NCBI GenBank assembly: GCA_018657495.1
Contig: JABHXA010000003.1
Coordinates: forward strand, 146,937 to 210,936
DNA from: Fidelibacterota bacterium
Lineage (GTDB): Bacteria > Fidelibacterota > Marinisomatia > SCGC-AAA003-L08 > JACNLC01
Direction: 5' to 3'
Length of the DNA stretch: 64,000 nucleotides
The translations under genes and the position numbers were made by a program. This document shows positions 8,040 to 64,000 of the stretch, piece by piece (position 1 is the first letter of the stretch; each line of letters begins with the position of its first letter). Below the pieces are notes generated by a model. That model made no database searches. It was not told the origin of the DNA and worked only from the letters and a program-made list of their open reading frames with translations.

Positions 8040-8180
8040 CGTTTACCTTTTAATTGTTTATGTCATTAATAAGATGAATGTAAACGATGCATGTCATACA
8101 GCACATTAATCGTTAGATCATTCAATAAGATAACAGTGAAAACTATCAAGAATATGAATAAGAATAAAAGGAGTATCAAG

Positions 8181-31800: not shown

Positions 31801-32418
31801 GGAATGGATATAGATGTATCCATGAGTCATAATCTTTATAAATTGAAACTGAATCCCGATATTTCTAAATTGGTGCCTGTAGATGAATTTTCCTCATATC
31901 CCCGTTTGACCAGTTTAAGTATTGGCACATCATTACGTCTCAGCGGAACCAGCCTGATTGAACCGGATCTCTCTACAGATCCAGTCGAACCAGATACAAT
32001 ATATACTGGCGCACTTCTGGATGAGGGTGTACAATTGGATACTGGAATTGAAAGTGCTGCACCATCTATTGGAAGAGCTAATCTCTGGGAAGCCACGTTG
32101 GGTTTGCGTTATTCATTAAATAAACGGGTTGAAGGCGAGGAAGTGGTGGATGATAAAACCTACTGGATGAATACAAATCTTACTCTGAGAATCACCAGAA
32201 ACTGGGTCATGAGATATAATGCTAGAATAAATATGCTTGAGAGAGAGTTGGTGACTCATTCATTTGATTTTTATCGAGAGCTGCATTGCTGGGAGCTTCG
32301 CTTTCAATGGTGGCCTTCAGGTGGTGGAAAAGGATTCATGCTAAGAATTAATGTGAAAAATCCAGATCTCCAGGATATCAAACTGAAATCTACTGGCGGT
32401 AGCATCTGGAGATTCTAG
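28891..32418 (+). CDS. lptD: LptD-like LPS-assembly outer-membrane protein (OstA N-terminal jellyroll + large beta-barrel)
   Basis: 1175 aa. OstA-like N-terminus (KVQQFVGDVILQRGTMTLYTDKAIHY...LLGSVKLVD), a barrel region with ERHSGWIMPSFGHS..GTYFHGLGYYWAPNDYLD, and a terminal aromatic (IWRF). TTG start. Confidence 0.7.
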   Translation: MKTLSNLGTIIVRRTISSVNYFYSHNRFILFILLSFTLSADNDDRLKILQAGSLERMEMEGEKVQQFVGDVILQRGTMTLYTDKAIHYLNRNEYHLLGSVKLVDETDTLLSKSMFFYNDRVNYLKAMDDIFFTQDNQVITCDSLLYWTELDSGLAMGNVIMMSKMDTMTATTFNYWKTDGYRGTSFVTSGGTKIYEDEKVIVAESISYDDNEQFMSLNVGSSLEEPGKGISGNNIHIQYNDSLIQSIFVDGQTHAYQDMNAMLYSGDTGSHKFTDNMSASYMSSFFEDGEMYELNLIGMATTKYNVVKDSLLQGLNKATGDTITVSFEDGDMNRIQVFGGGRGVFEPEVANSRIDSVITYQADYLDYHVDEQITYLENDASVDYQGTKLSAGFIKSNWNTDMLDARLKGDVYPTIDSPTSDPMSGDQMEFNLLTHHGRVTLGKTRLNQGYYYGKEIFRDDPNIFHVTKSRYTSCDLDRPHFHLASRKMKMITGDKVVARPIILSIYDIPLFGIPLAVFPNKGGERHSGWIMPSFGHSKSAGTYFHGLGYYWAPNDYLDGKVLFNFRDQQGFDVKGKLNYVKRYKFSGNISSDIFRNVDSNEIADIFKDNVSKQWRIHWNHNHRIDPTQNVIIDANYVSDNKINQDYGYDLKTRLEQRLRSQAIYSKHWASTKNSLSLTLSEDFDLLAAESLPSEKSKSPGDKLIERTRTFPSISFSHSLTQVFGNGPKWYNSIYWRMSSLLTARQAVNLVAATDSTWFQDRTYDRTYQARHNFTLTSPQKVSGWLTLSPSFKLTSDWVFKYRKAQLDESGAFVKDSVTSVIVYDEIEKFLPRNTFTLSISANTKMYGTFPVRIGKLDAIRHVMTPNISFSWKPDFSKNVLGADPGYFQRDVNGEKFDKFTGSTAGSTSSRESKTIGYSLRNEFQTKYLISEDTYSKETIATWNMNGSYNATADSLRFSPISSGIRAGIPGGMDIDVSMSHNLYKLKLNPDISKLVPVDEFSSYPRLTSLSIGTSLRLSGTSLIEPDLSTDPVEPDTIYTGALLDEGVQLDTGIESAAPSIGRANLWEATLGLRYSLNKRVEGEEVVDDKTYWMNTNLTLRITRNWVMRYNARINMLERELVTHSFDFYRELHCWELRFQWWPSGGGKGFMLRINVKNPDLQDIKLKSTGGSIWRF

Positions 32419-32511: not shown

Positions 32512-34050
32512 TTAACTATCGGTCAGAATAATACTTACCATAAGTACGACATCCAATACATCTACTGAATCATCCAGATTCACATCAAGACATGGGTCAT
32601 CGAGGGTACATTCATCACATAATATCAGACTCACCAGCAACACCACATCCAATACATCTACCGCACCATTTTCATCCACGTCCCCGGCAGGCAGACATTC
32701 AGAGGGATCCCCGATCACGAATGATAAATTTATCTCATCATCAGAATTACCGTCAGAAAACTGAAAAACTACATTATAGGCACCATCTTCCGGATCGATT
32801 AGAGCATATGAATACTCTACAACAGATTCATAATCATGGGAAGACGGGATCATTTCCCAGATTTCTCCCTGATGAGATATGTAATGATCAAAGGGCAGAT
32901 TGGCCTCAGGGTCACTATAGTTTACATGCAGAACCTGGTCAACATCATCAAAATAGACATCCGAGATATCCATCTGATTATTTCCAGCCTGATACTGAGA
33001 GTCCATAAGGAAAATACCGGCTTCTGTAGCATCATGAAATAACATGTTCTGATCTATATCTGCTGAGGCAGTAAGACCCATAACCGTAAAACCATTGAAT
33101 TCATTTGACCAATTCCCAAAATCAGGATCATCAACAATAGTGGCAATGGCCGTTGAGAGATATAGTGAGTTTCCACTGGTAACAAATTCAATATCATTCG
33201 AAATATAATCAGCACTGATAATCTCACCATCGGGCGTTCCGATTAGTTTCATCACACCGGGATAAAGATTACCAAAAGCGCCATTTCCATAACCAAGAGC
33301 ATAAATGATCAATTCATCGCTATTTAAATCTTGCTCAGGATTCAGAAAGCCAGCTCCATATAAAAACCATGGACCAAAAAATTCACCTACTGGAAATCCG
33401 CCATCAACTGTGAGAAGTTGTATAAAAACCCTATCCTCACTATAGCTAACTCGCAGATCAGTGATATCCAAAAAACTTTCGCCATTTTCCTGATCACCCT
33501 GATCTTCAATAGCAATACTGGCAAATAAACCATCCGAGGGTGGAAAGCTATTGTTGAGGTTGGCAGGACTTTGGGTAATGACTGCTCTCTCATTTTCAAA
33601 ATCATAGGATGCCTGAAAATACCAATTTAAATATGCTCCGCTAAAGGTCGTCACATCACATTGCCAGGTATTTTCATATCCCATTGTACCTAATTGAGAA
33701 CAGGTTTGTGAATTCCAAATCTCCTGTTGATTGTTCGAATAATACACAGATGCCAGTGGATTTAATGCCATAAGGGAATCATTAAAATCTATATTAAATC
33801 TTAGTGCAGGCGATGGAGCTGTATTGTAGAGATGATGAAATAATACCTCATCCCGGGTCACCCGATTGAATTCAGCAGTACGGTTTGCTATCGAACTATA
33901 TAAATACGCAGAAAACCGATTGAATATTTCTTTGCCCTGTTCTTCAAGTTGACAAAATGCCACAGAACTGAGGGAAAATCCCATCAGGATAACCAGCAAA
34001 TAATTGTTAATGATAAATTTTCTATTCATACGAATCATAAACTTAACCAA
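32512..34050 (-). CDS. Secreted protein with C-terminal dockerin-like double repeat
   Basis: 512 aa with a signal peptide. The C-terminus is GDVDENGAVDVLDVVLLVSLIL...DVNLDDSVDVLDVVLMVSIILTDS, two EF-hand-like Ca-binding loops each followed by a helix. There is no T9SS sorting domain. Confidence 0.7.
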   Translation of the reverse strand: MVKFMIRMNRKFIINNYLLVILMGFSLSSVAFCQLEEQGKEIFNRFSAYLYSSIANRTAEFNRVTRDEVLFHHLYNTAPSPALRFNIDFNDSLMALNPLASVYYSNNQQEIWNSQTCSQLGTMGYENTWQCDVTTFSGAYLNWYFQASYDFENERAVITQSPANLNNSFPPSDGLFASIAIEDQGDQENGESFLDITDLRVSYSEDRVFIQLLTVDGGFPVGEFFGPWFLYGAGFLNPEQDLNSDELIIYALGYGNGAFGNLYPGVMKLIGTPDGEIISADYISNDIEFVTSGNSLYLSTAIATIVDDPDFGNWSNEFNGFTVMGLTASADIDQNMLFHDATEAGIFLMDSQYQAGNNQMDISDVYFDDVDQVLHVNYSDPEANLPFDHYISHQGEIWEMIPSSHDYESVVEYSYALIDPEDGAYNVVFQFSDGNSDDEINLSFVIGDPSECLPAGDVDENGAVDVLDVVLLVSLILCDECTLDDPCLDVNLDDSVDVLDVVLMVSIILTDS

Positions 34051-37200: not shown

Positions 37201-37466
37201 ACGCTTACACTGCCCTAAATATTGGAAAAACCGTTGGTATGCCCATCCCCGGTACAGCAACGGCAGTTTGGTGGGAGAACCTCCTTGATCCATCACTTGT
37301 CTTTGGCATGCCCATGGTTGGTGTAAAAAATACAGATGGTGAATTTTTAGAAAACAATCAGCTTGAGCCAGACTACCGTGTCAAAAATGACCCCGAATCG
37401 ATTGCTAAAGGAAGAGACAAACAAATCGAGAAAGCGGTTGAAGTTCTCTTGGAGCAACTAGATTAA
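34230..37466 (+). CDS. Tricorn-like protease (beta-propellers + PDZ + S41 peptidase domain)
   Basis: 1078 aa with a signal peptide. TolB/WD40-like repeats (PAISPNGTEIIFSYMGDLY, PVWSNDGSKIAFASDR), a PDZ-like segment, and a C-terminal S41 core (RWNGGGW...ANYSDAHFFPYAY). Confidence 0.8.
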   Translation: MKKLSKIILIISGFIFLQANEPSWVRYPAISPNGTEIIFSYMGDLYKVSSTGGEAHSLTRHTAHDFMPVWSNDGSKIAFASDRFGNYDIFVMSANGGKPDRITYHSSNDYPSSWHPDDNSILFSSSRMDTYLSTLFPSGRMTELYSATLDGKLPVRLLTSPAEDAIYDDRAREIFYHDRNGLENIWRKHHTSSDTRDIWKYELRSGKHTQLTDFEGEDRSPHLYNKNEIFFLSERFGSFNVWKMKDNGKNVKQVTFHTEHPVRFLSQADNGTICYAFRGDIYILPLEWTEPVKVEVALYADDQENEIEYKTFSSGATEMAVSPDSKEIAFIVRGEVFVTSAEYETTRRITATPEQERNISFSSDGRKLLYAGERNGSWNLYQSSIVNEDDKHFASADEIIETPILVSEPETFQPQFSPNDSLIAYLHERDEIRILDVASGDTWIALPAKNNYSYSDGDQYFEWSPDGKWLVANYLPSPERWVEDIALISVDGKKLIPVTESGYPYWVPHWSEDGSMIYAFSNELGMRSHGSWGSQTDVFGYFTSDSTYDFSKLSKEEVENIENEEEDESENDDDESEKDDDDDEEEDEAEIKPIRIEEENFRDRKQRLTVHSSQLRDGRVSTDGKYLVYLARFEKGFDLWKVDLRERTPSLVAKMGAKNASSLHFDEDGTHVFFLKDGGNIVKYNIESGEMTAVSYHAEMELNYPAERAYMFEHVWRQMKKKFYVEDMHGVDWDMMKSEYSQFLPDINNNRDFCELLSEILGELNASHTGCYYRGRGGENDQTYSLGLYLDSGGDSGILVDEVINNGPSDKHDLKITKGTIIEAIDGNSVTGGVNYHRYLNRIKNRKVRLSLLDSVTGDRWVESIQPVSRGQLFNLVYNRWIENKRVLVDSLSNGRLGYVHVRGMNDSSFRKTFAELFGRQVDKEALIMDTRWNGGGWLHDDLAKLLSGTDYSWAVPRGKQVGKEPQNRWTKPVVLVMGEANYSDAHFFPYAYTALNIGKTVGMPIPGTATAVWWENLLDPSLVFGMPMVGVKNTDGEFLENNQLEPDYRVKNDPESIAKGRDKQIEKAVEVLLEQLD

Positions 37467-39101: not shown

Positions 39102-39887
39102 ATGTGTGATACATGCGGATGTAATCAGCCTGATGGGGCAGTAACAATCACAAAAATAGGCGAAAAAAACCATGATCATTCCCATGGAATTGGAGATAAG
39201 ACTCATACCCACCAATCTCCTGCTTCTCATCATGTCCACACGGTAACGATGGAAGAAGATATTCTACTTAAGAACAACCTTACTGCCGAACGAAACCGTG
39301 GGTATCTGGAAGCAAAAAATATTCTGACACTTAATCTGGTGAGTTCACCGGGTTCAGGAAAAACCAGTATTCTTGAGAGAACTCTCAAAGATTTGAAGAG
39401 TGAAATGGAGTTCTATGTCATCGAAGGCGATCAGCAGACATCAAGAGATGCCGAACGGATCGATACTACTGGGGTTCCAGTTGTACAGGTAAATACTGGC
39501 ACAGGCTGTCACCTCGATTCAACGATGATCAGAACGGCAATAGGTAAACTAAATCCGAATGATCATTCAGTACTGCTTATCGAAAATGTTGGGAATCTCG
39601 TTTGCCCCGCATTGTTTGATCTTGGGGAGACCCTTAAGGTCGTTATCATTAGCACAACGGAAGGTGATGACAAACCCCTGAAATATCCGACGATGTTTTC
39701 AGCTGCGGATATCTGCATTATTAACAAAACAGACCTTCTGCCGTATGTAGAATTTGATATGGGACTTTGTCAGAAAAATGCTTTGAAAGTAAACCATCAT
39801 CTTGAATTTTTTCAGATCTCCGCCACCAATGGCAATGGGCTGGAAAAATGGTATGATTGGATAAGATCACAGGTTCCTGTAGGATAA
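39102..39887 (+). CDS. hypB: Hydrogenase nickel-inserting GTPase HypB
   Basis: N-terminal MCDTCGC high-affinity Ni site, a His-rich stretch (HDHSHGIGDKTHTHQSPASHHVH), P-loop GSPGSGKT and ENVGNLVCP. Confidence 0.95.
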   Translation: MCDTCGCNQPDGAVTITKIGEKNHDHSHGIGDKTHTHQSPASHHVHTVTMEEDILLKNNLTAERNRGYLEAKNILTLNLVSSPGSGKTSILERTLKDLKSEMEFYVIEGDQQTSRDAERIDTTGVPVVQVNTGTGCHLDSTMIRTAIGKLNPNDHSVLLIENVGNLVCPALFDLGETLKVVIISTTEGDDKPLKYPTMFSAADICIINKTDLLPYVEFDMGLCQKNALKVNHHLEFFQISATNGNGLEKWYDWIRSQVPVG

Positions 39888-39893
39888 TATTTA

Positions 39894-42173
39894 ATGACTA
39901 TAATGGATTCTATCATCAGACAAAGAATCAAAGTTAACGGGATTGTTCAGGGGGTTGGATTCCGACCATTTGTATATAATCTGGCGATCAAGAACAATCT
40001 TAATGGTTTTGTATCCAATACTTCCGATGGCGTCGTCATCGAGTTGGAGGGGGCAGCGGGAGTAGTCGATCAATTTCTGGAATCAATGAGTGATTCTCCT
40101 CCACCGTTATCCAGCATATTATCACTGGATGCGAATTATATTCAGGTGGCAAATGACTGCGGTTTTAAGATAATCACTTCAAAATCTAATAATGAGATTT
40201 CAACCCAAATTTCCCCTGATGCTGCCATTTGTAGGGATTGCCTCAATGAAATATCTGATGTTGATAATCGGCGCTTTGAGTATCCATTTACAAACTGCAC
40301 AAATTGCGGTCCCCGTTATACAATAATTAAAGAATTACCGTATGACAGACATCTAACAACAATGTCAGATTTTAAAATGTGCAGCCAATGCAAAGAGGAA
40401 TATGACAATCCCATGGATCGTCGTTTTCACGCTCAACCCAATGCTTGTCCTGATTGCGGCCCATCTTTGACATTAACAGCTCGAGATGGTAAATCAATCG
40501 CATCAAGTGATAAAATTTCAACCTGCATCTCTCTTTTGAAAAGTGGATTTATTGTAGCGATAAAAGGACTTGGCGGATTTCATCTGATGGTGGATGCCAC
40601 CAATAGCAATGCTGTATCCCGTCTGAGAACACGGAAGAATCGAGAAGAAAAACCCTTTGCGGTAATGGCAAAAAACCTTGACCATGCAAGGGACTTATGT
40701 CATATTTGTGGCACTGAGGAGATATGGCTTACTTCTATACAATCACCTATAATGTTATTGAAAAGCATTGAAAATAATAATATCGCCAGTAATGTTGCTC
40801 CAGGCAGTGAATTTCTCGGAGTAATGCTTCCATATACGCCTTTACATGATCTCCTTATGAACTGCATTGTCGATGTTCCACCTTTGGTGATGACAAGCGG
40901 CAATTTGAGTGATGAACCTATCTGTATTGACAATGATGAGGCATTGGATCAACTCGGTGATATTGCAGATTATTTTTTATTACATGACCGAAGGATACAC
41001 ATTCGTGCCGATGATTCTGTGGTGATGATTATCAATAACAAACCACGGGTTATTCGTCGTAGTAGGGGATTTGCACCGGCACCGGTCATTCTCAAAAATA
41101 ATGGTCCTTCTGTTCTTGCTGTCGGTGGAGATTTAAAGAACACTATTTGTCTTCTAAAAAATAAAAATGCCCGGATTAGTCAGCATAATGGGGATTTGGA
41201 AAATCTTAAAGCGTATGAAACTTTCCAACAAACCATTCACCATCTTAAAGATATTTTTGATATTCAACCTGATATATTAGCCTGTGATATGCACCCTGGA
41301 TATTTTTCCACTCAGTGGGCAAAATCTATTTCCTATTTACCATTGTTTGAGGTGCAACATCATCACGCCCATCTTGCATCCGGCATGGCTGAATTTGGCC
41401 TGGAAAACCCTGTCATTGGCATAATCATGGACGGAACGGGTTATGGATTGGATAAAACAATTTGGGGCGGTGAGTTCCTTGTTGGAGATTATCATGGTTT
41501 TCAAAGGATAAATAAGTTCCAAAATATGCCCCTTCCCGGTGGTGATGCCGCTATCAAATCTCCCTGGAGAACGGCAATTGGATACCTCTTTAAAACGTAT
41601 GGAGATAGTCTGCCTGATTTGCCATTTATGATGTTACATGATTATGAACCGGTAATACAGATTGTTCAAAAGGGAATCAACAGTCCATTAACCAGTAGTT
41701 GCGGTCGATTATTTGATGCTGTTTCGGCTATGTGCGGCGGTAAGCAGGAAATCCGTTATGAAGGGCAGGCAGCGATTGAATTCATGAATGCAGCGGCGGC
41801 AGCAGGTGGTCGTTCATGTCTTGATTTTGAAATTATAGGTGATGTTGTTTCAGTGGAAAGTATTATCCGGTCGATTGTAAAATGTCTAAAAATGGATGAT
41901 AATTTATCTGTCATCAGCAGGAAGTTTCATAATACGATGATCAAAATATTTACGCAGGTGGCGATTCAAATATCTAAAGATACCGGTATAAATGACGTGG
42001 TACTCAGCGGTGGGGTTTTCCAGAATCGAATTTTACTTTCAGGAGTGAACGCCGCTTTAGAAAAGAACGGGTTATCCGTTTTCTCTCATGAACAGATACC
42101 CACAAATGACGGTGGGATTTCTCTGGGTCAGGCAATGATTGCCAGAAATAAATTACATAATAATAAAAATTGA
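39894..42173 (+). CDS. hypF: Carbamoyltransferase HypF
   Basis: 759 aa. Acylphosphatase domain (VNGIVQGVGFRPFVY), two CxxC zinc-finger pairs, then YrdC-like and Kae1-like domains. Confidence 0.95.
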   Translation: MTIMDSIIRQRIKVNGIVQGVGFRPFVYNLAIKNNLNGFVSNTSDGVVIELEGAAGVVDQFLESMSDSPPPLSSILSLDANYIQVANDCGFKIITSKSNNEISTQISPDAAICRDCLNEISDVDNRRFEYPFTNCTNCGPRYTIIKELPYDRHLTTMSDFKMCSQCKEEYDNPMDRRFHAQPNACPDCGPSLTLTARDGKSIASSDKISTCISLLKSGFIVAIKGLGGFHLMVDATNSNAVSRLRTRKNREEKPFAVMAKNLDHARDLCHICGTEEIWLTSIQSPIMLLKSIENNNIASNVAPGSEFLGVMLPYTPLHDLLMNCIVDVPPLVMTSGNLSDEPICIDNDEALDQLGDIADYFLLHDRRIHIRADDSVVMIINNKPRVIRRSRGFAPAPVILKNNGPSVLAVGGDLKNTICLLKNKNARISQHNGDLENLKAYETFQQTIHHLKDIFDIQPDILACDMHPGYFSTQWAKSISYLPLFEVQHHHAHLASGMAEFGLENPVIGIIMDGTGYGLDKTIWGGEFLVGDYHGFQRINKFQNMPLPGGDAAIKSPWRTAIGYLFKTYGDSLPDLPFMMLHDYEPVIQIVQKGINSPLTSSCGRLFDAVSAMCGGKQEIRYEGQAAIEFMNAAAAAGGRSCLDFEIIGDVVSVESIIRSIVKCLKMDDNLSVISRKFHNTMIKIFTQVAIQISKDTGINDVVLSGGVFQNRILLSGVNAALEKNGLSVFSHEQIPTNDGGISLGQAMIARNKLHNNKN

Positions 42174-42185
42174 TACGAGGATAAT

Positions 42186-42422
42186 ATGTGTCTTGCAATG
42201 CCGGGAAAAGTGATAAAAGTTTTTGAGGAGAATGGTCTGAAAATGGCCAATATTGATTACAGCGGCACTATCAATAAAGCCTGCATTGAATATGTTCCTG
42301 AGATTACTGCCGGTGAATACACTATCATCCACGCTGGTTTTGCTATTTCCGTTATCAATGAAGATGAAGCAATGAAATCATTCGAAGCCTGGCAGGAGTT
42401 GGAGAAAAGGATAAATGAATAA
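42186..42422 (+). CDS. hypC: Hydrogenase assembly chaperone HypC/HupF
   Basis: 78 aa starting with MCLAMPGKV. Confidence 0.9.
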   Translation: MCLAMPGKVIKVFEENGLKMANIDYSGTINKACIEYVPEITAGEYTIIHAGFAISVINEDEAMKSFEAWQELEKRINE

Positions 42423-42465
42423 AGAGTCATTTCTACTTCAACAAAAAAGAAAAACCAATTAATTT

Positions 42466-43557
42466 ATGATAAAATATTTGGATGAGTTCCGGGACCCGAT
42501 TGTGGCAAAGCGGATACTGGAAACAATCAAGAATACGGTAACCCAACCCTGGGTGATAATGGAGATTTGTGGTGGTCAGACTCATTCCATCATCCGAAAT
42601 GGGATTGATCAACTATTACCAAAGGAAATCGAATTGGTTCATGGACCTGGATGCCCCGTCTGCGTCACACCTATCGAAATTATCGATAAGGCGATGGCTC
42701 TGGCATCCAAACCGAATGTGATATTTACCAGTTTTGGCGATATGTTGAGAGTTCCCGGCTCAGATAAAGATTTGTTCATGATCAAATCCACAGGTGCCGA
42801 TGTGAGATCGGTTTATTCACCATTGGAATCTCTGAATATTGCGAGGAAAAACCCAAGTAAGGAAGTAATATTTCTTGCAGTAGGATTTGAAACAACTGCA
42901 CCGGGAAATGCTATGGCAATCCATCAGGCATCAAAAGAAGGTATCACAAATTTTAGTGAATTAGTAAGTCATGTATTGGTGCCGCCTGCAATGGAAACAT
43001 TATTATCATCTCCGGCAAACCGCGTTCAGGGCTACCTTGCAGCCGGCCATGTATGCGCTGTCATGGGTTGGCAGGAATATGAACCCATCGCCGAAAAATA
43101 TATGGTCCCAATAGTACCAACGGGGTTTGAACCGGTTGATGTGCTTGAAGGAATTCTCATGGTGGTGGAGATGCTTGAGAAAAATGACTATAGCGTAAAA
43201 AATCAATACCTTCGCACGGTGAGGCGTCAAGGAAATATTCCAGCACAAAAGATTATTCAGGATGTTTTTGAGGTCACCAATCAGGCCTGGCGCGGTATTG
43301 GCAATATTGCTTTAAGCGGACTTAAAATTCGTCAAAAATATCATCATTATGATGCTGCCAAAAAGTTTTCTGTTGATGATATACATTCCCAGGAATCAGA
43401 ATTATGTCTGAGCGGCATCATTTTGCAGGGAGTCAAAAAACCAAACCAATGTCCTGCTTTTGGAAAAGAATGCACCCCTATGCATCCATTAGGTGCAACT
43501 ATGGTATCGAATGAGGGCGCCTGTGCGGCATATTATAAATACCAGCGTTTGAAATGA
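42466..43557 (+). CDS. hypD: Hydrogenase maturation Fe-S protein HypD
   Basis: 363 aa. Motifs [17 protein letters not shown] and FETT. Confidence 0.95.
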
Positions 43558-43611
43558 ATATTCTCTCGTTAAATGCTGAGAAGAATCAAAAAAACATAAC
43601 TATACATTTAG

Positions 43612-44664
43612 ATGAACAATAATATGAAAGACTTCACCTGTCCGGTACCAATTTTAGAACATGATACAATCCAACTTGCCCATGGTGCTGGTGGACAATT
43701 ATCTTCAAAATTAATCGAAACCATGTTTCTTCCCAGGTTTGGCAATAAAATTCTCAATGATCTTGAAGACCAGGCTGTAGTACCCCTAAATGCCGGTAGA
43801 CTGGCAATTTCTACAGACTCATTTGTCGTAGATCCAATATTTTTTCCAGGTGGTAATATCGGTGAATTGGCCGTCAACGGTACTGTGAATGATGTAGCCA
43901 TGTCGGGAGCAAAACCCCTTTATCTCACTGTTGGATTTATACTGGAAGAAGGATTACCGATGGAAATATTGCATCGGATTCTATTGTCAATGGAGGCTGC
44001 AGCAAAAAAGGCTGGTGTTACCATTATTACCGGTGACACAAAAGTAGTAAACCACGGCTCTTGCGATCAGATATTTATTAATACAACCGGAATTGGGCAA
44101 GTGCCTGACAATGTAAATATTTCTGCATCATCATTAAGACCCGGAGACAAGATAATTATTTCCGGAACCGTTGCTGATCATGGAATGGCAGTTATGACCA
44201 GTCGCGAAGGATTATCTTTTCAAAGCCGGGTGAACAGTGACACTGCAGCCTTAAATCACATGATATCCAAAATGATAGAAGTATCACCGAATATACATGC
44301 ACTCCGCGATCCTACAAGAGGCGGTGTTGCCACCACTTTGAATGAATTTGCCAAATCTTCCAATATCGGGATAAGAATTCTCGAAGGAAGCATTCCGATA
44401 CTCCCTGATACCAGGGCTGCCTGTGAGGTCCTCGGTATTGATCCACTGAATGTAGCTAACGAAGGTAAACTTATCGCCGCAGTACCTGGGGAGATCGCCG
44501 CAGATATGCTTCAGGTTATCAAACGTTGCGAATATGGTAATAATGCAGAAATTATTGGTGAAGTTATCGACGATCACCCCGGAATGGTTACTATGAAAAC
44601 GGCATTGGGAGCCCTGAGGATTATTGATATGCCTCTTGGTGAACAATTACCGCGGATTTGTTAA
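43612..44664 (+). CDS. hypE: Hydrogenase maturation carbamoyl dehydratase HypE
   Basis: 350 aa with a PurM-like fold. It ends with the conserved PRIC. Confidence 0.95.
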   Translation: MNNNMKDFTCPVPILEHDTIQLAHGAGGQLSSKLIETMFLPRFGNKILNDLEDQAVVPLNAGRLAISTDSFVVDPIFFPGGNIGELAVNGTVNDVAMSGAKPLYLTVGFILEEGLPMEILHRILLSMEAAAKKAGVTIITGDTKVVNHGSCDQIFINTTGIGQVPDNVNISASSLRPGDKIIISGTVADHGMAVMTSREGLSFQSRVNSDTAALNHMISKMIEVSPNIHALRDPTRGGVATTLNEFAKSSNIGIRILEGSIPILPDTRAACEVLGIDPLNVANEGKLIAAVPGEIAADMLQVIKRCEYGNNAEIIGEVIDDHPGMVTMKTALGALRIIDMPLGEQLPRIC

Positions 44665-52082: not shown

Positions 52083-53765
52083 TTACTTATTTTTCTGTTT
52101 TCTCGCCCAGCTGTCTCGTAATGCAACGGTTCGATTAAAAATCAATTTTCCTTTGGAGCTATCCCTGTCAACACAGAAATATCCATGTCTCAGAAACTGA
52201 AACTGCGATTCAATATCTGCATCCTTTAAACTTGATTCTATTTTACAGCCTTTCATAACCAACAGCGAATCCGGATTTATATTATCCAGAAAATCACCGT
52301 CTTCCTCTACATCTTCAGGATTTTCTTTTGTAAAAAGATGATCGTACAATCTCACCTCGGCATCAATAGCATGTTTTTCCGAAACCCATTGCATGGTTCC
52401 GCGCACTTTTCGTCCATCATCAGACCAACCGCCTTTGGTTGCCGGATCATAAGTACAATGTAATTCTTTCACATTCCCTTCACTATCCTTGATTACATCG
52501 TTACAGGTCACATAATAAGCATGTTTGAGGCGTACTTCCTGGCCAACTGTCAATCTGAAAAATTTTCTGGGTGGATTCTCAACATAATCTGACCTTTCAA
52601 CCCACAATACTCTGCTGAAAGGAATTTCTCTTTTCCCTGCCGATTCATCCTCAGGGTTATTCTGTCCCGGCAGGAGCTCGTCTTGATTTTCAGGATAGTT
52701 GGTGATCACCAGCTTTAGAGGATCCAATACAGCCATTCGTCTTTCTGATACCTTATTCAATTCCTCACGAAGAGAGTGGTTCAACAGGGCAATATCGGCA
52801 ACACCATCGCGTTTGGCAACACCCGTTTTATCAGAAAACTCCCGAATAGATTTAGGCGTATATCCACGTCGGCGCAATGCAGATATGGTGGGCATCCGTG
52901 GGTCATCCCATCCGCTTACATGTCCTTCCTGGACTAGCCTGGCTAACTTACGTTTGCTGGTAATTGTATAGTTCACATTCAAGCGGGCAAATTCAATTTG
53001 CTGTGGTCGATAGACGTCTAATTTTATCAAGAACCAATCATATAGCGGGCGGTGATCTTCAAATTCCAATGTGCACACAGAATGTGTAATACCTTCAATG
53101 CTATCCTCAAGTCCATGTGCCCAATCATACATAGGATATATGCACCAGTCATTTCCAGTTCGATGATGAGATTCATGGAGGATACGATACATTACCGGAT
53201 CACGCATATTCAAATTTGCAGACGACATATCAATTTTGGCACGGAGAACTTTCTCGCCATCCTTAAACAGACCTTCTCTCATTTGTCGGAATAAAGTAAG
53301 ATTTTCCTCTACCGTTCGATTCCGAAAAGGACTGTCAGCTCCAGCTTTTGTAAGTGTCCCTCTGGTTGATCTTATATCTTCCGCTGATTGATCATCCACA
53401 TAGGCATCACCAGATTGAATTAACTGTTCTGCATAATTATAAAGCTGCTGAAAATATCCAGAAGCAAAGAAAATTCGATCTGTGAGATCAAACCCCAGCC
53501 ATTCCACATCTTTGATGATGGATTCCACAAATTCATCTTCTTCTTTTATTGGGTTGGTATCATCAAAGCGCAGATTACAAATTCCACCTTCATAATTGGC
53601 AGCGAAACCAAAATTCATACAAATCGATTTGGCGTGGCCAATATGCAGATATCCATTTGGTTCAGGCGGGAACCGAGTATGAACCCGTCCTTGATATTTG
53701 CCTGTTTTCAGGTCGTCGATTATGATTTCATCTATAAAGTTTGATGCTTTTTCGTTTTCGCTCAT
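52083..53765 (-). CDS. glnS: Glutaminyl-tRNA synthetase
   Basis: 560 aa. [17 protein letters not shown] (HIGH), ITSKRKL (KMSKS-type), and a C-terminal anticodon-binding beta-barrel region typical of GlnRS. Confidence 0.95.
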
Positions 53766-53767
53766 GA

Positions 53768-55201
53768 TTATCCTGTATGAAATTCAAGTGATGTTTTCAA
53801 TCTTAATTTTATGGTTTCAAGATCTAATAAATTAAATAATGTCGGCATATCCGGACCATGTACACTGCCGTATAATGCCAGCCTAAGTGGTGAATAAAGA
53901 TCCTTTCCCTTAACACCGGTTTCTTCTATCGTTCTTTTTAGAAGGGATTTCAGATCGTCTGCATTCCAGCTACTTTGCGTATCAAGTTCTTTCAACCAGA
54001 ATTGACATACAGAAAAGGATGTTTTTAATGATAGTATTTCCCCATCTTCATTGTTGAACTTTAGATCAAAGTAAAACATTCGGACCTCATCAGGTAGCTC
54101 ATTGAGGGTGTTTACTCTTTTCCGCGCATAATCCACAGCGCTTCTGAATTTATCATTATCTGATATATCAAAATTCTCTGATGTAAAAACAGATTCCACT
54201 TTTTTACAAATATTTTCAAGGCTCTCATTTTTTAGATAGAGACTGTTCATCCAATTGAGTTTATCCTGATCAAAAACGGCGCCGGATTTTTGGATTCGTT
54301 TTATACTGAATTCTTTTTCAAGGTTTTTTAAGCTGAAAATCTCTTTGTCATTGCCTGGATTCCAACCCAGCAGTGCCACAAAATTGAGCATGGTTTCCGC
54401 CAGAAATCCTTTATCAAGAAAGTCTTCAACTGCCACATCACCCTGTCTTTTTGATAACTTTGATTTATCCGGGTTGAGTAATAGTGGTAGATGAGCGAAC
54501 TTAGGGGGAGACCAACCAAGAAAACGATAGAGCAGAACATGTTTTGGTGTAGAGGATAACCATTCTTCACCACGGATGACATGACTGATTCCCATGAGAT
54601 GATCGTCGACAACATTGGCAAGATGATAGGTTGGAAATCCATCTGTTTTCAGGATGACCTGATCGTCAAGATCATTTGACTTAATAGAGACTTTATCCCG
54701 AACGATATCATAAAAAATAATATCTTCATCTGCTGGTGATTTCAATCGAATTATATGAGATTCAGTACTCATTCTGGTCATTGCTTCATCTCTGCTTAGC
54801 GATAGACAATGACGGTCATAAGGTGTATTTAACTTGTCTGTCAATCTTTGCTGCCGGACATTTTTCAGCCGCTCAGTATCGCAAAAACAAGGATAGGCAT
54901 TACCGGAATCGATTAACTCATTGATATATTTTTTGTAAGTATCTAATCGCTGACTTTGAAAATAGGGACCATTTTCACCACCCTGATCTGGTCCTTCATC
55001 AAATTGGATACCAATACGATTAAATGTACTAAGCAGGTTATCTACAGCTCCTTCAACTTTGCGGGATTGGTCAGTATCCTCAATACGAAGAACAAATGAT
55101 CCGCCAGTTTTTTTCGCATAGAGATAATTATATAATGCGGTTCTTAAACCACCCACATGAAGATAACCTGTTGGACTGGGAGCAAACCGGGTTTTAATCA
55201 T
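53768..55201 (-). CDS. gltX: Glutamyl-tRNA synthetase
   Basis: 477 aa. [22 protein letters not shown] and KLSKR. Confidence 0.95.
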
Positions 55202-58573: not shown

Positions 58574-58864
58574 AGAAAATATCGCTTAATATACATCTAT
58601 TTTCACCGTTTTTGAAAGAAATAATAGAGGTGAATTAATTCCACCAAAATTAACTTTTAATCCTTTTTGTATAATATTTCTTCAAAATATTATACAAATT
58701 ATTTATCATACTAGCGATGTTGTTCAGACAAAATATCTTACCGCATTAAATATTAGAAAATTGAAAAGGGCTGGTGATTTCAGAAAGAATTAATCAAATA
58801 GATGAACAAGAAAACCACATTGGAATCAAAAAATTAAGAGCTGAAGGGCAGAACAGGAAGAAAA

Positions 58865-58908
58865 ATTAAAGACAGCTAATCAATATAAATTGACCAGCTG
58901 TCTTTAAT
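58865..58908 (-). terminator. Rho-independent terminator downstream of the cohesin/T9SS gene
   Basis: 13-bp inverted repeat ATTAAAGACAGCT ... AGCTGTCTTTAAT with an 18-nt loop. It starts 14 nt after the stop and is followed on the minus strand by a T-run (TTTTTC). Confidence 0.7.
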
Positions 58909-58921
58909 TTTGAAAAGATTA

Positions 58922-59647
58922 TTATTTTAGAAGGATAATCCTCTGTGCGGATTGATATTCATTTGTTGTCATTCGAAGCATATAAATACCTGATGCAAAG
59001 TCGGTTGCATTCCATTTAATACTATAATGACCAGCTGACTGGAAACCATTCATCAATTCAGTTACTTGACGACCTTGTAGATCATAAACAGTAATTGATA
59101 AATCCCCATCCACTGATAAATCATACGAAATATTCGTTACAGGATTGAATGGATTTGGATAGCTTGCCAATAATGCGGTTTTTACCGGAATCGTTGGGTT
59201 TGTTGTAATGCTGAATGATGGTAGATCAGCAGGAATTTTTGTTCCGGAACTGCCAGCCAAAATCAGATCAGTAAATTGTACAAAGCTTTCACCTTGAAAA
59301 CCGGCAGCCGGTTCAAAATCAAATTGAATAACTTCTGCCAGTGCATCTGGATTTATTGATTCACCTGTCATGCTGAAAATTAATCCTTTAATTACACCGT
59401 TATCTTTTTCACGAAAATCAAAGGTGAAATCTTCAAGTAATGAAGCTGCGCCATTGAAAGCCAGTTCATCAGTATTGTATTGCAGGTTAAATTGTAAACC
59501 ATAAATCATCTCATCAGAATTTACAATCAGTTCCATTCCAAGTGAGTTTGTCAGGTCAGAGCTTTCTGATCTGCTTAGATTCACAGTTGTATTTGCGGCT
59601 ACAAGCATGGTAAAAACCACAGTTATAAGCATTAGTTTTGTTTTCAT
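58922..59647 (-). CDS. Secreted cohesin-like domain protein with T9SS C-terminal sorting domain
   Basis: 241 aa with a signal peptide. The central ~125 aa show a cohesin-like pattern (LGMELIVNSDEMIYGLQFNLQYNTDELAFNG...VIQFDFEPAAGFQGESFVQFTDLILAGSSG). The C-terminal ~80 aa match the T9SS type A domain (SYPNPFNPVTNISYDL...ITVYDLQGRQV...SGIYMLRM...ILLK). AGGAG RBS. Confidence 0.75.
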   Translation of the reverse strand: MKTKLMLITVVFTMLVAANTTVNLSRSESSDLTNSLGMELIVNSDEMIYGLQFNLQYNTDELAFNGAASLLEDFTFDFREKDNGVIKGLIFSMTGESINPDALAEVIQFDFEPAAGFQGESFVQFTDLILAGSSGTKIPADLPSFSITTNPTIPVKTALLASYPNPFNPVTNISYDLSVDGDLSITVYDLQGRQVTELMNGFQSAGHYSIKWNATDFASGIYMLRMTTNEYQSAQRIILLK

Positions 59648-59867
59648 CTTATTCTCCTACTTTTTTATCTAGCATGTTAATGCGTCTGATTGATAGTTCT
59701 TCAATAAGTATCGTACTGCCAGTTGGCATACTCTCTAATTTATTCAACTGTATGCATTAAGATGTCATTTTAATTGTATCAATATATAAAAAGTTTTTAT
59801 TAACGATTTTAGTAATGTATGAACCATTGATATTATACAACCACATGTTTCAAGATGGTTTCCAAGG

Positions 59868-62800
59868 TCAATCCTCTAATATATAATCAACTATGGTAAC
59901 AATATCCAGAACATCTACAAACCCATCGCTATTTGTATCAGCAGATATTCTCTGGCCCTGATTCAATTCCACATTCCCAAGAATATAACCAACCATTAAT
60001 ACAACGTCTAAAACATCTGCAGCGTTATCTCCATTTACGTCATAGGTCGTTTGGGAAACCGGTATCAATTGTGGGATGAATTGGTCATCAGGTGCCCAAG
60101 TGAGTATACCGGAATCCATATTGTAATACCCCTCATAAACCTGATCTTCTGATGATCGCCAGAATAGAACTTCAATGTTATTTCCTTCTATCCAGCCTGG
60201 ATATTGACCATATTCGTTTTCTTCATCATCACAGAAATCCATTGAACCATAAGTTGTGATCTCCAATGGTTCACCTTGCCAGACACCGGCACCAACGAGA
60301 ATTTCACCCAGCTCATCAGAGCAGTCGCCAAAATTGAGAATGCCATTGTAATCCAGTAACCCAATCTCATCACCAATATCAGCATCTTCAATGAAATCGA
60401 TACTAATCGTGGATTCAACAGTCAATCCGGTAGTATCAGCAAAGTTGAGATAGTCTTCAAGCTGACCGTTGAGGATATCTGTGAAGTATTCTAGGTCAAA
60501 TGTAATACAATCACCGATGGTAACTGTCAGGGCATCACCAGTAATTGTAAAAGCAGATGATTCAGTAATGCAGATATCCTCACCTGTTAATTCTGAAAAA
60601 TCTAAATTGGTTAACAGAGCATTACCGGGTGGAATAACTTCCTGAAACATACTGAACAAGGTGAAACCATTTGGAATTGATTCAGAATAGAAAAATCCAT
60701 ATTCTTGAGCAGTCCCGCCAGATAATCCTTCTATCTCAAATCCGACAAAATGTAAATTGACTGCAGCAACATTAACAAGATTGTCCATCCACAGTTCTAT
60801 GGTGTTATTCTCCAAGTTAAGATCACCGAAATACAATGTCACATCAGCTGTTTCAATAATTGGTAATATGAGAACCCAATACCACCCATCATCTGGATAT
60901 GTTATGACTATCTCCTCTGTATAATTAGATTCGTTTACTGGGGGAATACCCGTTATTGTCAATTGATAGGAGTTCTCAAATCCGGCATCGATATTCAGCC
61001 AATCCGGTACAGAAATGAATTCAAAGAATCCTTCCTCTGGTTCAAAAGGAAATTCAACAATTTCTGAATATTCTTCACCCATTATTGCCGGTTCCAGATA
61101 CACTGTTCTTGTTGAATCAATTACACCCAGCATCCCATCATTTCCAACAGCAGTATGTCCATAGGTACAACCCCCATTCACATGAATATTTTCGATTAAA
61201 ACAGGGGTTGTCTGAAGTTGTGCGGTTGCGGTGAAATGGACATCAAATAGCCTGCCAATATAATCATCGATCGCTGTGTAAACGAAGGTGAAAGAAATTG
61301 TCCGAATGCGATTGTTTTGATGATCAATCGAAACGAGAAATCCTTCTTCCTGTGGTAGTCCTTCATTAACGTAAACTGAATCAAATGCAGATAGCTCAGG
61401 GAAAACCAGATCAAATCCAAAAGCTTCTAAATAAGAACCACTCGGAACAGTAATATCAATAGGAATGACAAACTCATTGTTTGAACTATATGCAATTGTA
61501 TCTATCACTGTAAATTCAATTAATTCCCTTGTGGATAAATCTGAATTTTCATCAAATTCTGGAAAACCAGAAATACATGGATAATCATCAATATCGATGT
61601 TACCGTCTCCATTCAAGTCACCACAAGCCAGTTCCAGTTCAGTTGGTGTTTCGAAACTGAGTATTTGTGTGACTAATGCAACGATGTCCAATATATCAAA
61701 GCCGCCATCATTATTATAATCACCATATCCGCAATCAAATTCAGTTTGGTGGTAATAATATGCGCCCATATCAGCATTGGTGCCATCAGGATCAAGAGGT
61801 GCATAAGGATCACCAGCATCAATGCAAGGCGAAGATGTTTCAAGATGAAAATCACCTGTTTCAGGATCTACAAACTGGGGATTCAGATTCAAATTCCCTT
61901 CCAGCCAGAGTACTTCTCCATTATTATGGGTTTCGATACCGGATTCACCTCCTTGTACATTTGAATAGGCAAGGGAGATAAAATTTTCCGGATAGTATTC
62001 ATAGAATGACACTTCCGTGGGAAAGTTATTCCACAAAATGCTGTTGGTAACGTTGATATTGGAAATATCATAGGCATAAATCCCGCCACCGTCTGTTATT
62101 GCGGTGTTTCCTGATATAGTCATATTGACCATACTCATATCAGATCCATCGCAATATACGGCCCCACCTTCAGTAGCAGCGGAATTGTTTATAATTGCAA
62201 CTCCGGTCATATCGAGTTCTGAATAAATACAAAAAATCCCACCGCCCCGGCCATATTCTCCAATCGCTGCATTACCTGTGATAGTGATATCAGATAATAC
62301 AGGACTAGACATCCGGCAATAGATGCCTCCTCCCTCAATATTCAATCCTCCGGTAAGAGTGAGATTTGATACAGAACAGTGATTAACATGGTCAATAATC
62401 ATCGTGACGTCGGACTGCTCCGCATCCAGAATCACTGTGCTTTCCGAAGCGCCGTTGAGGGACACAAACTCAACCATTTCGACAGGGAATATCTCCCCGT
62501 TACTGGAAGAGCTGTAAAGTCCGTCAGCCAGATAGATTGTGTGCTGCTGGAGGCTATCAGCATGGATGGTTTCTAGGGCATGGTGAATGGTCATGAATGG
62601 CGTCTCAGGAGTAAGTCCATCATTGCCATCATCACCGTTAGGCGATACATACAAGTCCGCATCCACTTGTTGCTGAACGGCATGCCAGATATCAAAGGTG
62701 AATTCATTGATGGGGGACGCATGATAGTCGGTGGGAATCATTACCGAAAAAGTATCAACCACAACCGCAATATTTTCGGTGGTGGTAAAGATATCCGCAC

Positions 62801-64000
62801 CACTGCCGCGAGTATGAACGGTATTGGAGTAAATGTTACAGCGATTTTCCGCTGAAAAACCCAGATCAAAGGTATTAAAGGCATAAATCCCTCCGCCATA
62901 TCGATTGGCCTGATTCCTTGCGATAGTCACGTCCGTCAATGACGGTGCTGAATTAGCAAAATAGATACCACCACCATCTCCTTCCTCACCCGTGGCTGAA
63001 TTGCCCGAAATAGTCACATTTGTCAAGCTCATAGTGGAATACCCAAAGCTATAGATGCCCCCACCCTGGTCAATTACAGTGTTGCCAGAAACCGTCACCT
63101 GGGTGAGAATAGGACCAGATTCCCAACTATAAATCCCCCCACCTCCCTGAATGGCTGAATTGCCCATTATCTGCACCTGGGTCAGCAATGGAAATGAATT
63201 ATCCCGGCAATGTATTCCTCCGCCATACCACTCTGCAAAATTATTGATGACTATCAAGTTTGACAGTGTAGGACTGGCTTCATCACAGTAGACTCCACCT
63301 CCCCTGATTGCTAATCCATTCTGAATGGTCAAACCGATCAAAGCTGCAGATTCGGTTTCATCCTGATCAAATGTTACCACTGTGCCTGACTGATTTCCAT
63401 CAATGACCGTCTGACTGATATAGCTGGTATCACCGGTTGTAATGAATAGCGAACCGATCACAATATTTTGGCTGTCGAAATCAATATTTTCCAGATAGGT
63501 CCCCGGATACACCAAGACCGTATCACCATCTACAGTAGAATCAATACCAAGTTGAATAGATGCAAAGGGAAGATCAGAACTACCATCCCCAGATTCGTCA
63601 GAACCATCGGTAGAAATATGCCATACTGGACCATTATATTCTGGTTCTGGTTCTAAAATCTCACTTATAGTTAGCATTACATCAAGAATATTCACTATCT
63701 CATCATCATTAAAGGCATTGTTATCGCAAACATACCCATATCCGGCTGGATCCATGATCAAGTCAATCATTGTAAGCAAATGAGTCAATTGATAATTTCC
63801 ACATTCCTCCCATATGATATTATTAAAACATGCATATTCATCATAGTAATCACCACAGTCATCAGTACCGTTGCAAAGCAAATCGATACCTATACATTCG
63901 CTATTACCACATTGGAATTCATCATCTTCACAAACTGTCATTGTTGGAATAGAATTTCCAAGATTATCGGAGAAGATAATTGATGAAAACCCAGTGGGTT
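59868..64000 (-). CDS. Giant multidomain secreted protein: LDL-receptor class A-like module, two parallel beta-helix modules, dockerin-like and cohesin-like internal modules, C-terminal double dockerin (N-terminus outside window)
   Basis: The ORF track lists 1357 aa from the Met at 63941. The frame stays open upstream to the window end (...PTGFSSIIFSDNLGNSIPT-M), so the gene is probably 5'-truncated here. Domain evidence is given in the findings. Confidence 0.85.
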   Translation of the reverse strand, partial: PTGFSSIIFSDNLGNSIPTMTVCEDDEFQCGNSECIGIDLLCNGTDDCGDYYDEYACFNNIIWEECGNYQLTHLLTMIDLIMDPAGYGYVCDNNAFNDDEIVNILDVMLTISEILEPEPEYNGPVWHISTDGSDESGDGSSDLPFASIQLGIDSTVDGDTVLVYPGTYLENIDFDSQNIVIGSLFITTGDTSYISQTVIDGNQSGTVVTFDQDETESAALIGLTIQNGLAIRGGGVYCDEASPTLSNLIVINNFAEWYGGGIHCRDNSFPLLTQVQIMGNSAIQGGGGIYSWESGPILTQVTVSGNTVIDQGGGIYSFGYSTMSLTNVTISGNSATGEEGDGGGIYFANSAPSLTDVTIARNQANRYGGGIYAFNTFDLGFSAENRCNIYSNTVHTRGSGADIFTTTENIAVVVDTFSVMIPTDYHASPINEFTFDIWHAVQQQVDADLYVSPNGDDGNDGLTPETPFMTIHHALETIHADSLQQHTIYLADGLYSSSSNGEIFPVEMVEFVSLNGASESTVILDAEQSDVTMIIDHVNHCSVSNLTLTGGLNIEGGGIYCRMSSPVLSDITITGNAAIGEYGRGGGIFCIYSELDMTGVAIINNSAATEGGAVYCDGSDMSMVNMTISGNTAITDGGGIYAYDISNINVTNSILWNNFPTEVSFYEYYPENFISLAYSNVQGGESGIETHNNGEVLWLEGNLNLNPQFVDPETGDFHLETSSPCIDAGDPYAPLDPDGTNADMGAYYYHQTEFDCGYGDYNNDGGFDILDIVALVTQILSFETPTELELACGDLNGDGNIDIDDYPCISGFPEFDENSDLSTRELIEFTVIDTIAYSSNNEFVIPIDITVPSGSYLEAFGFDLVFPELSAFDSVYVNEGLPQEEGFLVSIDHQNNRIRTISFTFVYTAIDDYIGRLFDVHFTATAQLQTTPVLIENIHVNGGCTYGHTAVGNDGMLGVIDSTRTVYLEPAIMGEEYSEIVEFPFEPEEGFFEFISVPDWLNIDAGFENSYQLTITGIPPVNESNYTEEIVITYPDDGWYWVLILPIIETADVTLYFGDLNLENNTIELWMDNLVNVAAVNLHFVGFEIEGLSGGTAQEYGFFYSESIPNGFTLFSMFQEVIPPGNALLTNLDFSELTGEDICITESSAFTITGDALTVTIGDCITFDLEYFTDILNGQLEDYLNFADTTGLTVESTISIDFIEDADIGDEIGLLDYNGILNFGDCSDELGEILVGAGVWQGEPLEITTYGSMDFCDDEENEYGQYPGWIEGNNIEVLFWRSSEDQVYEGYYNMDSGILTWAPDDQFIPQLIPVSQTTYDVNGDNAADVLDVVLMVGYILGNVELNQGQRISADTNSDGFVDVLDIVTIVDYILED

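Follow-up and report, generated by a model that had tools for sequence, protein, structure and literature searches.

Does a small secreted protein that joins a cohesin to a type IX secretion system (T9SS) sorting domain act as a surface receptor for dockerin-ended proteins? This question is raised by a 64,000-nucleotide stretch of DNA from a Fidelibacterota bacterium (assembly GCA_018657495.1, contig JABHXA010000003.1, positions 146,937 to 210,936), called the window below. Near its end lie, on the same strand, a gene for a 2261-amino-acid (aa) protein, here called the giant, and directly downstream of it a gene for a 241-aa protein. In the first-pass annotation of the window, the 241-aa protein was described as a signal peptide, one cohesin-like module and a T9SS C-terminal domain (CTD), and was proposed to hold dockerin-tagged cargo at the cell in a cellulosome-style manner. 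The domain composition is confirmed by the analysis reported here. It appears rather probable that the T9SS-displayed cohesin captures, in a Ca-dependent manner, the C-terminal tail of the giant, composed of a conserved module (X) and a dockerin (together X-Doc), as well as other secreted dockerin proteins.

The 241-aa protein begins with a Sec signal peptide, read directly from the translation (MKTKLMLITVVFTMLVAA/N). It contains no lipobox cysteine, and the protein is therefore not a lipoprotein. The extreme C-terminus matches both T9SS sorting-domain models above their cut-offs, namely Por_Secre_tail (PF18962; residues 163-238, E 3e-12, 47.1 bits, cut-off 27) and TIGR04183 (E 1.1e-11, 44.6 bits, cut-off 23). 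Of the profile searches suggested in the first-pass annotation, those with TIGR04183 and with the dockerin family PF00404 succeeded, while the Pfam Cohesin model (PF00963) applied to this protein alone gave 15.5 bits (E 0.02), under its cut-off of 24.1. Pfam Cohesin is matched by all six members of the small family to which the protein belongs (best E 2.3e-6), and with the family profile, solved cohesins of Clostridium perfringens (2jh2/2o4e/2ozn) are matched at E 5e-5. The AlphaFold2 (AF2) model of the module, with a mean predicted local distance difference test score (pLDDT) of 72.9, is a flattened beta-sandwich/jelly-roll that superposes on solved cohesins. Its top Foldseek matches are cohesins: 2w1n (E 8.9e-11), followed by 2vo8/2jh2 (2-4e-7; 2vo8 E 2.1e-7) with a template modelling (TM) score of 0.75, and then by cellulosomal and archaeal cohesins. 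A cohesin fold, on which the first-pass annotation had staked its reading, was thus found. Because of the six family matches, the profile-to-PDB match and the Foldseek ranking, the cohesin assignment of the middle module is sound at the level of fold and family.

Proteins of this kind are not confined to the window. Public assemblies contain the identical 241-aa protein in 307 indexed blocks, and a profile search of 1.8 billion representatives returned 224 clusters with its cohesin type. Many of these are proteins of 240-260 aa with the same signal peptide-cohesin-CTD order; others are multi-cohesin proteins with a C-terminal CTD. Among Marinimicrobia metagenome-assembled genomes (MAGs), Cohesin and Por_Secre_tail are found together above the Pfam threshold in one 2904-aa and one 681-aa protein, and the phylum has multi-cohesin CTD proteins (L148 and L144).

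The gene of the giant is open at the end of the window, which holds at least 1376 of its codons; its 5' end lies 2.65 kb beyond. The whole protein was read from flanking contigs of 250-323 kb (L098; ENA ERZ27237574 k141_223000; JGI Ga0427881_000004), which were reached via the identical 241-aa protein and are 100% identical to the window over 15,079 shared bases; an exact-match search for the last 60 bases of the window in the genome contigs returned none. The 2261-aa chain starts with a signal peptide (MKTYKYFRNTILLFCLSVIYS/QE), followed by three cysteine-bracketed motifs, a low-density lipoprotein receptor class A (LDL-A) module, two beta-helix blocks, an internal dockerin, unassigned modules, the X module and the C-terminal dockerin. 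No Pfam family was matched in the N-terminal 905 aa. The three bracketed motifs (GCTDPxAxNY..DDGSCEY, or more fully GCTDPPALNYxPxAxxDDGSCEY) lie on L098 (2995-4100), in the N-terminal part of the giant beyond the window, between repeats of ~110 aa, and the motif recurs in a Fib_succ_major protein and in further dockerin proteins (P0020; L084:19551-20414).

The beta-helix region carries repeats of the Chlamydia polymorphic membrane protein (PMP) type, and no catalytic family was recognised in it. Because neither this region nor the 512-aa protein described below has a meaningful PDB relative by sequence, no catalytic function is assigned to either. The giant is probably a surface protein that serves as an adhesin or that binds or degrades a polymer. 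Of its three unassigned modules, module A is collinear with the cohesin-like module of protein P0014. When compared with the cohesin profile by hhalign, the P0014 module gave E 8e-5 and module A of the giant E 0.057, which is not significant; module C was not significant either. Homologues of a 371-aa internal stretch of the giant were sought and none was found. The idea that the giant carries cohesins of its own, as an adaptor scaffoldin would, meets with no Pfam match, no homologues and no significant hhalign score in the giant itself, only the P0014 equivalent reaching E 8e-5.

At the other end of the giant, Pfam and TIGRFAM scans found neither a type-A nor a type-B CTD, and the chain closes with a dockerin, as had been annotated for the more than 1370 residues visible in the window. 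The whole giant scores E 1.4e-14 and 54.4 bits with Dockerin_1 (PF00404). In an AF2 model of X-Doc (pLDDT 77.5), the dockerin has three helices and superposes on the Clostridium thermocellum type I dockerins 1ohz_B (TM 0.91) and 2ccl_B (TM 0.86) with a root-mean-square deviation (rmsd) of 0.8 Å over 54-56 columns. The X module is a beta-sandwich in this model, and a structure search gave it no convincing relative. The internal dockerin (aa 739-787 counted from the in-window Met) had been missed in the first-pass annotation.

A further dockerin-ended secreted protein, of 512 aa, had been predicted elsewhere in the window and was recovered. Its last 66 aa scanned alone reach 24.4 bits against a cut-off of 22.9; on the whole protein the match is marginal (11.7 bits, E 0.3). 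Both of its Ca-loop repeats are intact (DVDENGAVDVLD and DVNLDDSVDVLD). The type I layout, in which two segments of ~22 residues each consist of an EF-hand-like Ca loop and a helix, is present in all three window dockerins. By direct reading, all of their repeats have complete Ca loops, with D/N at positions 1, 3, 5, 9 and 12. A hydrophobic V/I-L pair occupies positions 10-11 in five of the six repeats, the second repeat of the internal dockerin having I-D there. The 512-aa protein is a candidate second ligand of the cohesin. Its divergent neighbour (34230-37466, plus strand) encodes a 1078-aa protein with a TolB/PD40 propeller and an S41-like (tricorn-type) protease, in which a run of ~35 aa is nearly pure Asp/Glu.

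Gene order in related DNA bears directly on whether the cohesin-CTD protein and the giant belong together. On L084, a 22-kb contig of another Marinimicrobia lineage, the same cassette occurs twice in tandem, in the order tetratricopeptide-repeat (TPR) regulator, beta-helix-X-dockerin protein (953 and 1096 aa), beta-lactamase-fold dockerin protein and cohesin-CTD protein (240 aa). Identities to the proteins at the window locus are 59% for the regulator, 64% for X-Doc, 48-50% for cohesin-CTD and 38% for the helix. The giant is 64% identical to the beta-helix protein P0015 over X-Doc and 38% over the beta-helix. By these identities, X-Doc is the best-conserved part of the giant. Fusions add to the picture. 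Dockerin, cohesin and CTD follow each other at the C-terminus of P0018 and of a C10 peptidase in L084, and several open reading frames (ORFs) in Marinimicrobia MAGs hold all three in one chain (coh-Doc-CTD). A protein from candidate division KSB1 (P0085) is read as coh-Doc-coh-CTD by local hidden Markov models (HMMs) and is named a dockerin protein at NCBI. On L084 (16092-19451, minus strand), a 1119-aa protein has the order inhibitor_I69, peptidase C10, beta-helix, dockerin, cohesin and T9SS CTD. Because it combines both docking halves with its own sorting signal, this protein could form chains at the cell surface, with itself or with other proteins.

The distribution of the X module provides a third kind of evidence. 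The module was found in Marinimicrobia at 52 loci in ~30 MAGs. The local HMMs place a dockerin after it in ~10 ORFs of Marinimicrobia MAGs and a CTD in more than 19. A Pfam check bore out one example of each arrangement: L104 showed Dockerin plus Por_Secre_tail, while in L110 the X module is followed by a tail that resembles a CTD (FlgD_ig 32.5 bits; Por_Secre_tail 25.7 bits, slightly below the cut-off of 27). Since X precedes either a dockerin or a CTD, the dockerin occupies the CTD slot. Of the eight MAGs with a cohesin-CTD gene, seven also encode X-module proteins. The X module itself (~146 aa) has no Pfam match and no clear PDB match; it always stands before a dockerin or a T9SS CTD (L101-L152) and is sometimes found in tandem, in up to 5 copies.

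In the window, the spacer between the two genes, estimated earlier at about 220 bp, is exactly 220 bp. Because it contains no terminator-like site and a strong terminator follows right after the cohesin gene, the giant and cohesin genes probably form one transcription unit separate from ruvB. The terminator scan returned four overlapping registers of the cohesin-gene hairpin and one other site, whereas the expectation from shuffled sequence was 0.7. Past the end of the window, a 496-aa TPR protein is encoded upstream of the giant (L098:1472-2962). It has no signal peptide and a helix-turn-helix-like C-terminus, and for these two reasons it is read as a cytoplasmic regulator. An identification of the 493/496-aa TPR protein as a T9SS lipoprotein of the PorW/SprE type was rejected on the same features. 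A TPR histidine kinase is encoded divergently (L098:1-810), and the two are likely to be a dedicated regulatory pair for the cassette.

In the proposed mechanism, the cohesin-CTD gene and the giant gene, plus the TPR/helix-turn-helix-like regulator, would act as a regulated cassette. The 241-aa protein would be exported by Sec, and the T9SS would then recognise its type-A CTD and bring it to the cell surface, with its single cohesin exposed. The giant, a beta-helix/PMP-repeat protein with an X-Doc dyad at its end and no CTD, would also be exported by Sec. Ca-dependent binding of dockerin to cohesin would link it to the T9SS product and, through this, to the surface of the cell, and other dockerin-ended proteins, such as the 512-aa protein, would likely use the same receptor. 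X-Doc and cohesin-CTD could then be regarded as a two-piece version of the one-piece X-CTD tail of many Marinimicrobia proteins. Domain identities, folds, gene order, cassette conservation and architecture alternation are observed, whereas the binding, a dependence on the T9SS, anchoring at the surface and the way in which the giant passes the outer membrane are inferred. Covalent anchoring of the 241-aa protein would be an extrapolation from Porphyromonas gingivalis, the only organism for which CTD cleavage and covalent surface attachment are known. The presence of T9SS machinery and the cleavage of the CTD are likewise assumed by analogy with other phyla. The machinery finds indirect support in the density of CTD proteins in related contigs and in T9SS genes reported from several phyla of the Fibrobacteres-Chlorobi-Bacteroidetes (FCB) group (PMC11285876); a literature search for Marinimicrobia/Marinisomatota with dockerin or T9SS found nothing relevant.

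Several observations weigh against capture by a T9SS-displayed cohesin. No T9SS core gene (SprA/Sov, PorV, PorU or GldK/L/M/N) was seen in the 64-kb window or in the ~16 kb of flanks read, where the search for such genes turned up housekeeping, ccm and hyp genes only. The mechanism accounts for no outer-membrane route of the CTD-less giant, and the Pfam cohesin score of the 241-aa protein itself is under the gathering threshold. Outside Porphyromonas, many type-A CTD cargoes are released and not anchored, and the cohesin could therefore end up soluble. The cohesin-CTD gene lacks a dockerin neighbour at 8 of 8 other genome loci (+/-10 kb) and on 3 short metagenome contigs; adjacency is therefore the exception. 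The closest relatives by RuvB (L001, L002) have no pair beside ruvB, and when the three proteins were compared with 80 ruvB loci by tblastn, relatives showed no syntenic copies, the match in L024 being to the CTD only. Stand-alone cohesin-CTD genes would fit a general receptor that serves dispersed dockerin proteins, but they weaken the argument for a specific pair. The pairing proposed in the first-pass annotation is thus partly supported, by the duplicated L084 cassette, the fusions, the alternation of X-Doc with X-CTD and the position of the terminator, whereas the two genes are not generally syntenic.

The same domain evidence would also suit a model in which dockerin proteins leave the cell separately, by type II secretion, vesicles or lysis, and are bound by surface cohesins afterwards. 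This model, which the first-pass annotation regarded as the simplest, is a serious possibility, if somewhat short of an even one. It is analogous to the anchoring cohesins of Gram-positive bacteria and is assumed in a proposal for Cloacimonadota (PMC8542988), but no alternative outer-membrane secretion system was seen in the window and flanks, and capture after free release into open seawater would presumably be inefficient for a planktonic cell. The interchange of dockerin and CTD after the X module is open to another interpretation, in which the cohesin-CTD protein is a detachable T9SS signal: it would bind the dockerin in the periplasm and, in a folded complex with the CTD-less X-dockerin cargo, take this through the SprA translocon, tethering being a by-product. 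Such trans-acting export would answer the question, raised in the first-pass annotation, of how the cargo leaves the cell. It is consistent with the co-encoding, in two lineages, of one minimal cohesin-CTD gene with CTD-less, Sec-exported dockerin proteins, and with the ability of the T9SS to export folded and very large cargo (PMC9251779). If true, it would make the dockerin a functional 'CTD by proxy' in this lineage, and would be the first case of T9SS hitch-hiking and a new use of the cohesin-dockerin pair. It is nevertheless unlikely. In each L084 cassette, two or more cargoes would have to share one cohesin, and most cohesin-CTD genes are unlinked to a cargo gene. Proteins with their own CTD also carry dockerin and cohesin, which fits surface assembly better than export, and a literature search found no paper describing T9SS hitch-hiking.

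A further explanation dispenses with cognate pairing altogether. The cohesin-like module would be a beta-sandwich of a generic kind that serves a T9SS cargo as a spacer or for binding glycans. The dockerin-like repeats would be Ca-stabilised elements with other partners or none, and the adjacency of the genes would be coincidental. The sub-threshold Pfam score and the stand-alone position of most orthologues agree with this. Partnerless non-cellulosomal dockerin-like modules are, moreover, generally held to be common, a point for which Peer et al. (2009) is cited in PMC8542988. Set against these points, the folds nearest to the module belong to bona fide dockerin-binding cohesins, conservation and duplication of the cassette extend to its regulator, Doc-Coh-CTD fusions recur, and no part of the giant is better conserved than X-Doc. 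An absence of cognate pairing is quite unlikely.

The locus is not a cellulosome, because it has one cohesin, no glycoside hydrolase (GH) and no carbohydrate-binding module (CBM). The inner modules of the giant are not significant against the cohesin profile, and no GH or CBM family matched any of the three proteins. The partners on L084 are beta-helix, beta-lactamase-fold and C10 peptidase proteins. Of the earlier term 'cellulosome-style', the tethering logic stands; the cellulosome does not, the locus having no GH, CBM or multi-cohesin scaffoldin. The nearest architectural parallels in C. thermocellum are SdbA, OlpA and OlpC, in which one cohesin is likewise fused to a cell-surface attachment module. 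Its (X-)dockerin ligands resemble the giant in that a C-terminal dockerin follows a conserved beta-sandwich X, as in type II X-Doc dyads, and the dockerin fold is nearly identical (rmsd 0.8 Å to 1ohz_B). However, the anchor in C. thermocellum consists of S-layer homology (SLH) repeats on a Gram-positive wall, whereas here it is a T9SS CTD of a diderm FCB bacterium. The ligand there is a scaffoldin or cellulase, in contrast to a beta-helix/PMP-repeat protein here, and the X module shows no detectable relation to the clostridial one. The closest sequence and structure matches of the cohesin module are the non-cellulosomal cohesins of the C. perfringens glycosidases NagJ/NagH (2jh2, 2o4e, 2ozn, 2w1n, 2vo8), at an identity of only 15-18%. 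The cohesin-dockerin pair of that organism assembles non-cellulolytic proteins, as is proposed here, but in Gram-positive secreted toxin/enzyme complexes without a membrane anchor of the T9SS CTD type.

Type-A T9SS cargo proteins, such as RgpB of P. gingivalis and enzymes of Flavobacterium johnsoniae, share with the 241-aa protein a Sec signal peptide and a C-terminal beta-sandwich sorting domain of ~80 aa. Their passengers are enzymes or adhesins, whereas the passenger here is a protein-protein docking module. Anchoring in P. gingivalis proceeds via anionic lipopolysaccharide (A-LPS). The closest published proposal is the in-silico description, from MAGs, of a cellulosome-like complex in 'Ca. 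Stygibacter' of the Cloacimonadota (Williams et al. 2021, PMC8542988). This is also an FCB bacterium with cohesin protein(s) bearing a T9SS-type CTD and signal-peptide proteins bearing C-terminal dockerins; the proposal is likewise in-silico only, and the outer-membrane route of the dockerin proteins is left open there as well. The general idea of a CTD-bearing cohesin scaffoldin with dockerin enzymes is therefore already published. 'Ca. Stygibacter' has a 3755-aa multi-cohesin scaffoldin with CBMs, together with dockerin-tagged GH18, GH57 and peptidases. In contrast, the present locus, in a different phylum, has a minimal 241-aa protein with a single cohesin in a probable operon with its putative ligand, and the comparative evidence consists of cassette conservation and X-Doc/X-CTD alternation. 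New elements are the phylum, the alternation, the breadth of the family and the minimal form, in which a single-cohesin gene shares a probable operon with a likely ligand and a regulator. The coordinates of the features are collected in Table 1.

Table 1. Features of the cohesin-CTD/giant locus and of the 512-aa protein gene (coordinates in the window).
Feature	Position	Strand	Basis or remark
Intrinsic terminator-like hairpin, 20-bp stem and T run	58863..58910	-	12 nt after the stop codon of the cohesin gene, before ruvB
241-aa protein gene (signal peptide - cohesin - T9SS CTD)	58922..59647	-	stop codon 58922-58924
Type-A T9SS CTD, aa 163-241 (YPNPFNP ... GIYMLRM ... ILLK)	58925..59161	-	PF18962 and TIGR04183
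Cohesin-fold module, aa 20-158 of the 241-aa protein	59174..59590	-	family profile vs PDB cohesins, Pfam, Foldseek
Sec signal peptide, aa 1-19 of the 241-aa protein, MKTKLMLITVVFTMLVAAN	59591..59647	-	direct reading, coordinates checked
Spacer between giant and cohesin genes, 220 bp	59648..59867	-	no terminator-like site; AGGAG ribosome-binding site 6 nt before ATG
Giant gene, 3' two-thirds (aa 886-2261 of 2261)	59868..64000, open at window end	-	ORF reading; whole gene read from flanking contigs
C-terminal type-I-like dockerin, DVNGDNAADVLD ... DTNSDGFVDVLD	59871..60044	-	PF00404, 34.3 bits scanned alone
X module, conserved beta-sandwich directly before the dockerin	60051..60488	-	homologue comparison, AF2 model
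Three unassigned modules A, B and C, ~350 aa	60492..61559	-	no Pfam match
Internal dockerin, two Ca loops, DYNNDGGFDILD and DLNGDGNIDIDD	61581..61727	-	PF00404, 31.0 bits, E 3e-7
Two right-handed beta-helix blocks with Chlamydia-PMP-type repeats	61737..63569	-	PF02415 E 6.5e-16, TIGR01376
LDL-receptor class A module	63828..63932	-	PF00057, E 6.8e-10
512-aa secreted dockerin-ended protein gene; dockerin at 32515-32688	32512..34050	-	signal peptide and PF00404

RuvB, encoded just downstream of the cohesin gene, shares 87% identity with its counterpart in a MAG of Candidatus Neomarinimicrobiota, and the 30 loci that rank next after this match are Marinimicrobia/FCB. The rest of the window is housekeeping in nature and includes ccm, typA, an ECF (extracytoplasmic function) sigma factor, hyp, aminoacyl-tRNA synthetases, an H+-pyrophosphatase, queA and ispF. 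A hydrogenase maturation set (hypB-like cobW GTPase, hypF, hypD, hypE) occupies 39102-44664 on the plus strand; the genome of this marine Marinimicrobia bacterium is therefore implied to encode a [NiFe] hydrogenase. At 52083-55201 (minus strand) there are two adjoining class Ic aminoacyl-tRNA synthetase genes, one encoding a 477-aa protein of the glutamyl-tRNA synthetase type and the other a 560-aa protein of the glutamyl/glutaminyl type with tRNA-synt_1c_C domains. The ECF sigma factor (7464-8039, minus strand) is accompanied by a 422-aa partner without a family match (6196-7464, minus strand), and a 695-aa protein with CarboxypepD_reg and von Willebrand factor A (vWA) domains is encoded divergently from them (8091-10178, plus strand). 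Together (6196-10178), these three may form a surface-signalling unit. A 1175-aa ORF with a TTG start (28891-32418, plus strand) has a weak LptA/OstA-like match (E 8.5e-7) and is probably a very long outer-membrane protein of the LptD type.

What is understood of cohesin-dockerin assembly comes almost entirely from Gram-positive cellulolytic bacteria. Such assembly is predicted here in a T9SS context in SAR406/Marinimicrobia, which, among the uncultured bacterial groups of the dark ocean, are some of the most widespread. If the pairing is true, it would define a way in which these cells equip their exterior with adhesin-like proteins of very large size, with serine-hydrolase-fold proteins and with proteases, and it would bear on particle attachment and the breakdown of organic matter. 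The locus also offers a compact pair, a 139-aa cohesin and a 206-aa X-dockerin, for asking whether T9SS cargo can be recruited non-covalently. Such recruitment would be relevant to the mechanism of the T9SS and to the engineering of surface display in Bacteroidota.

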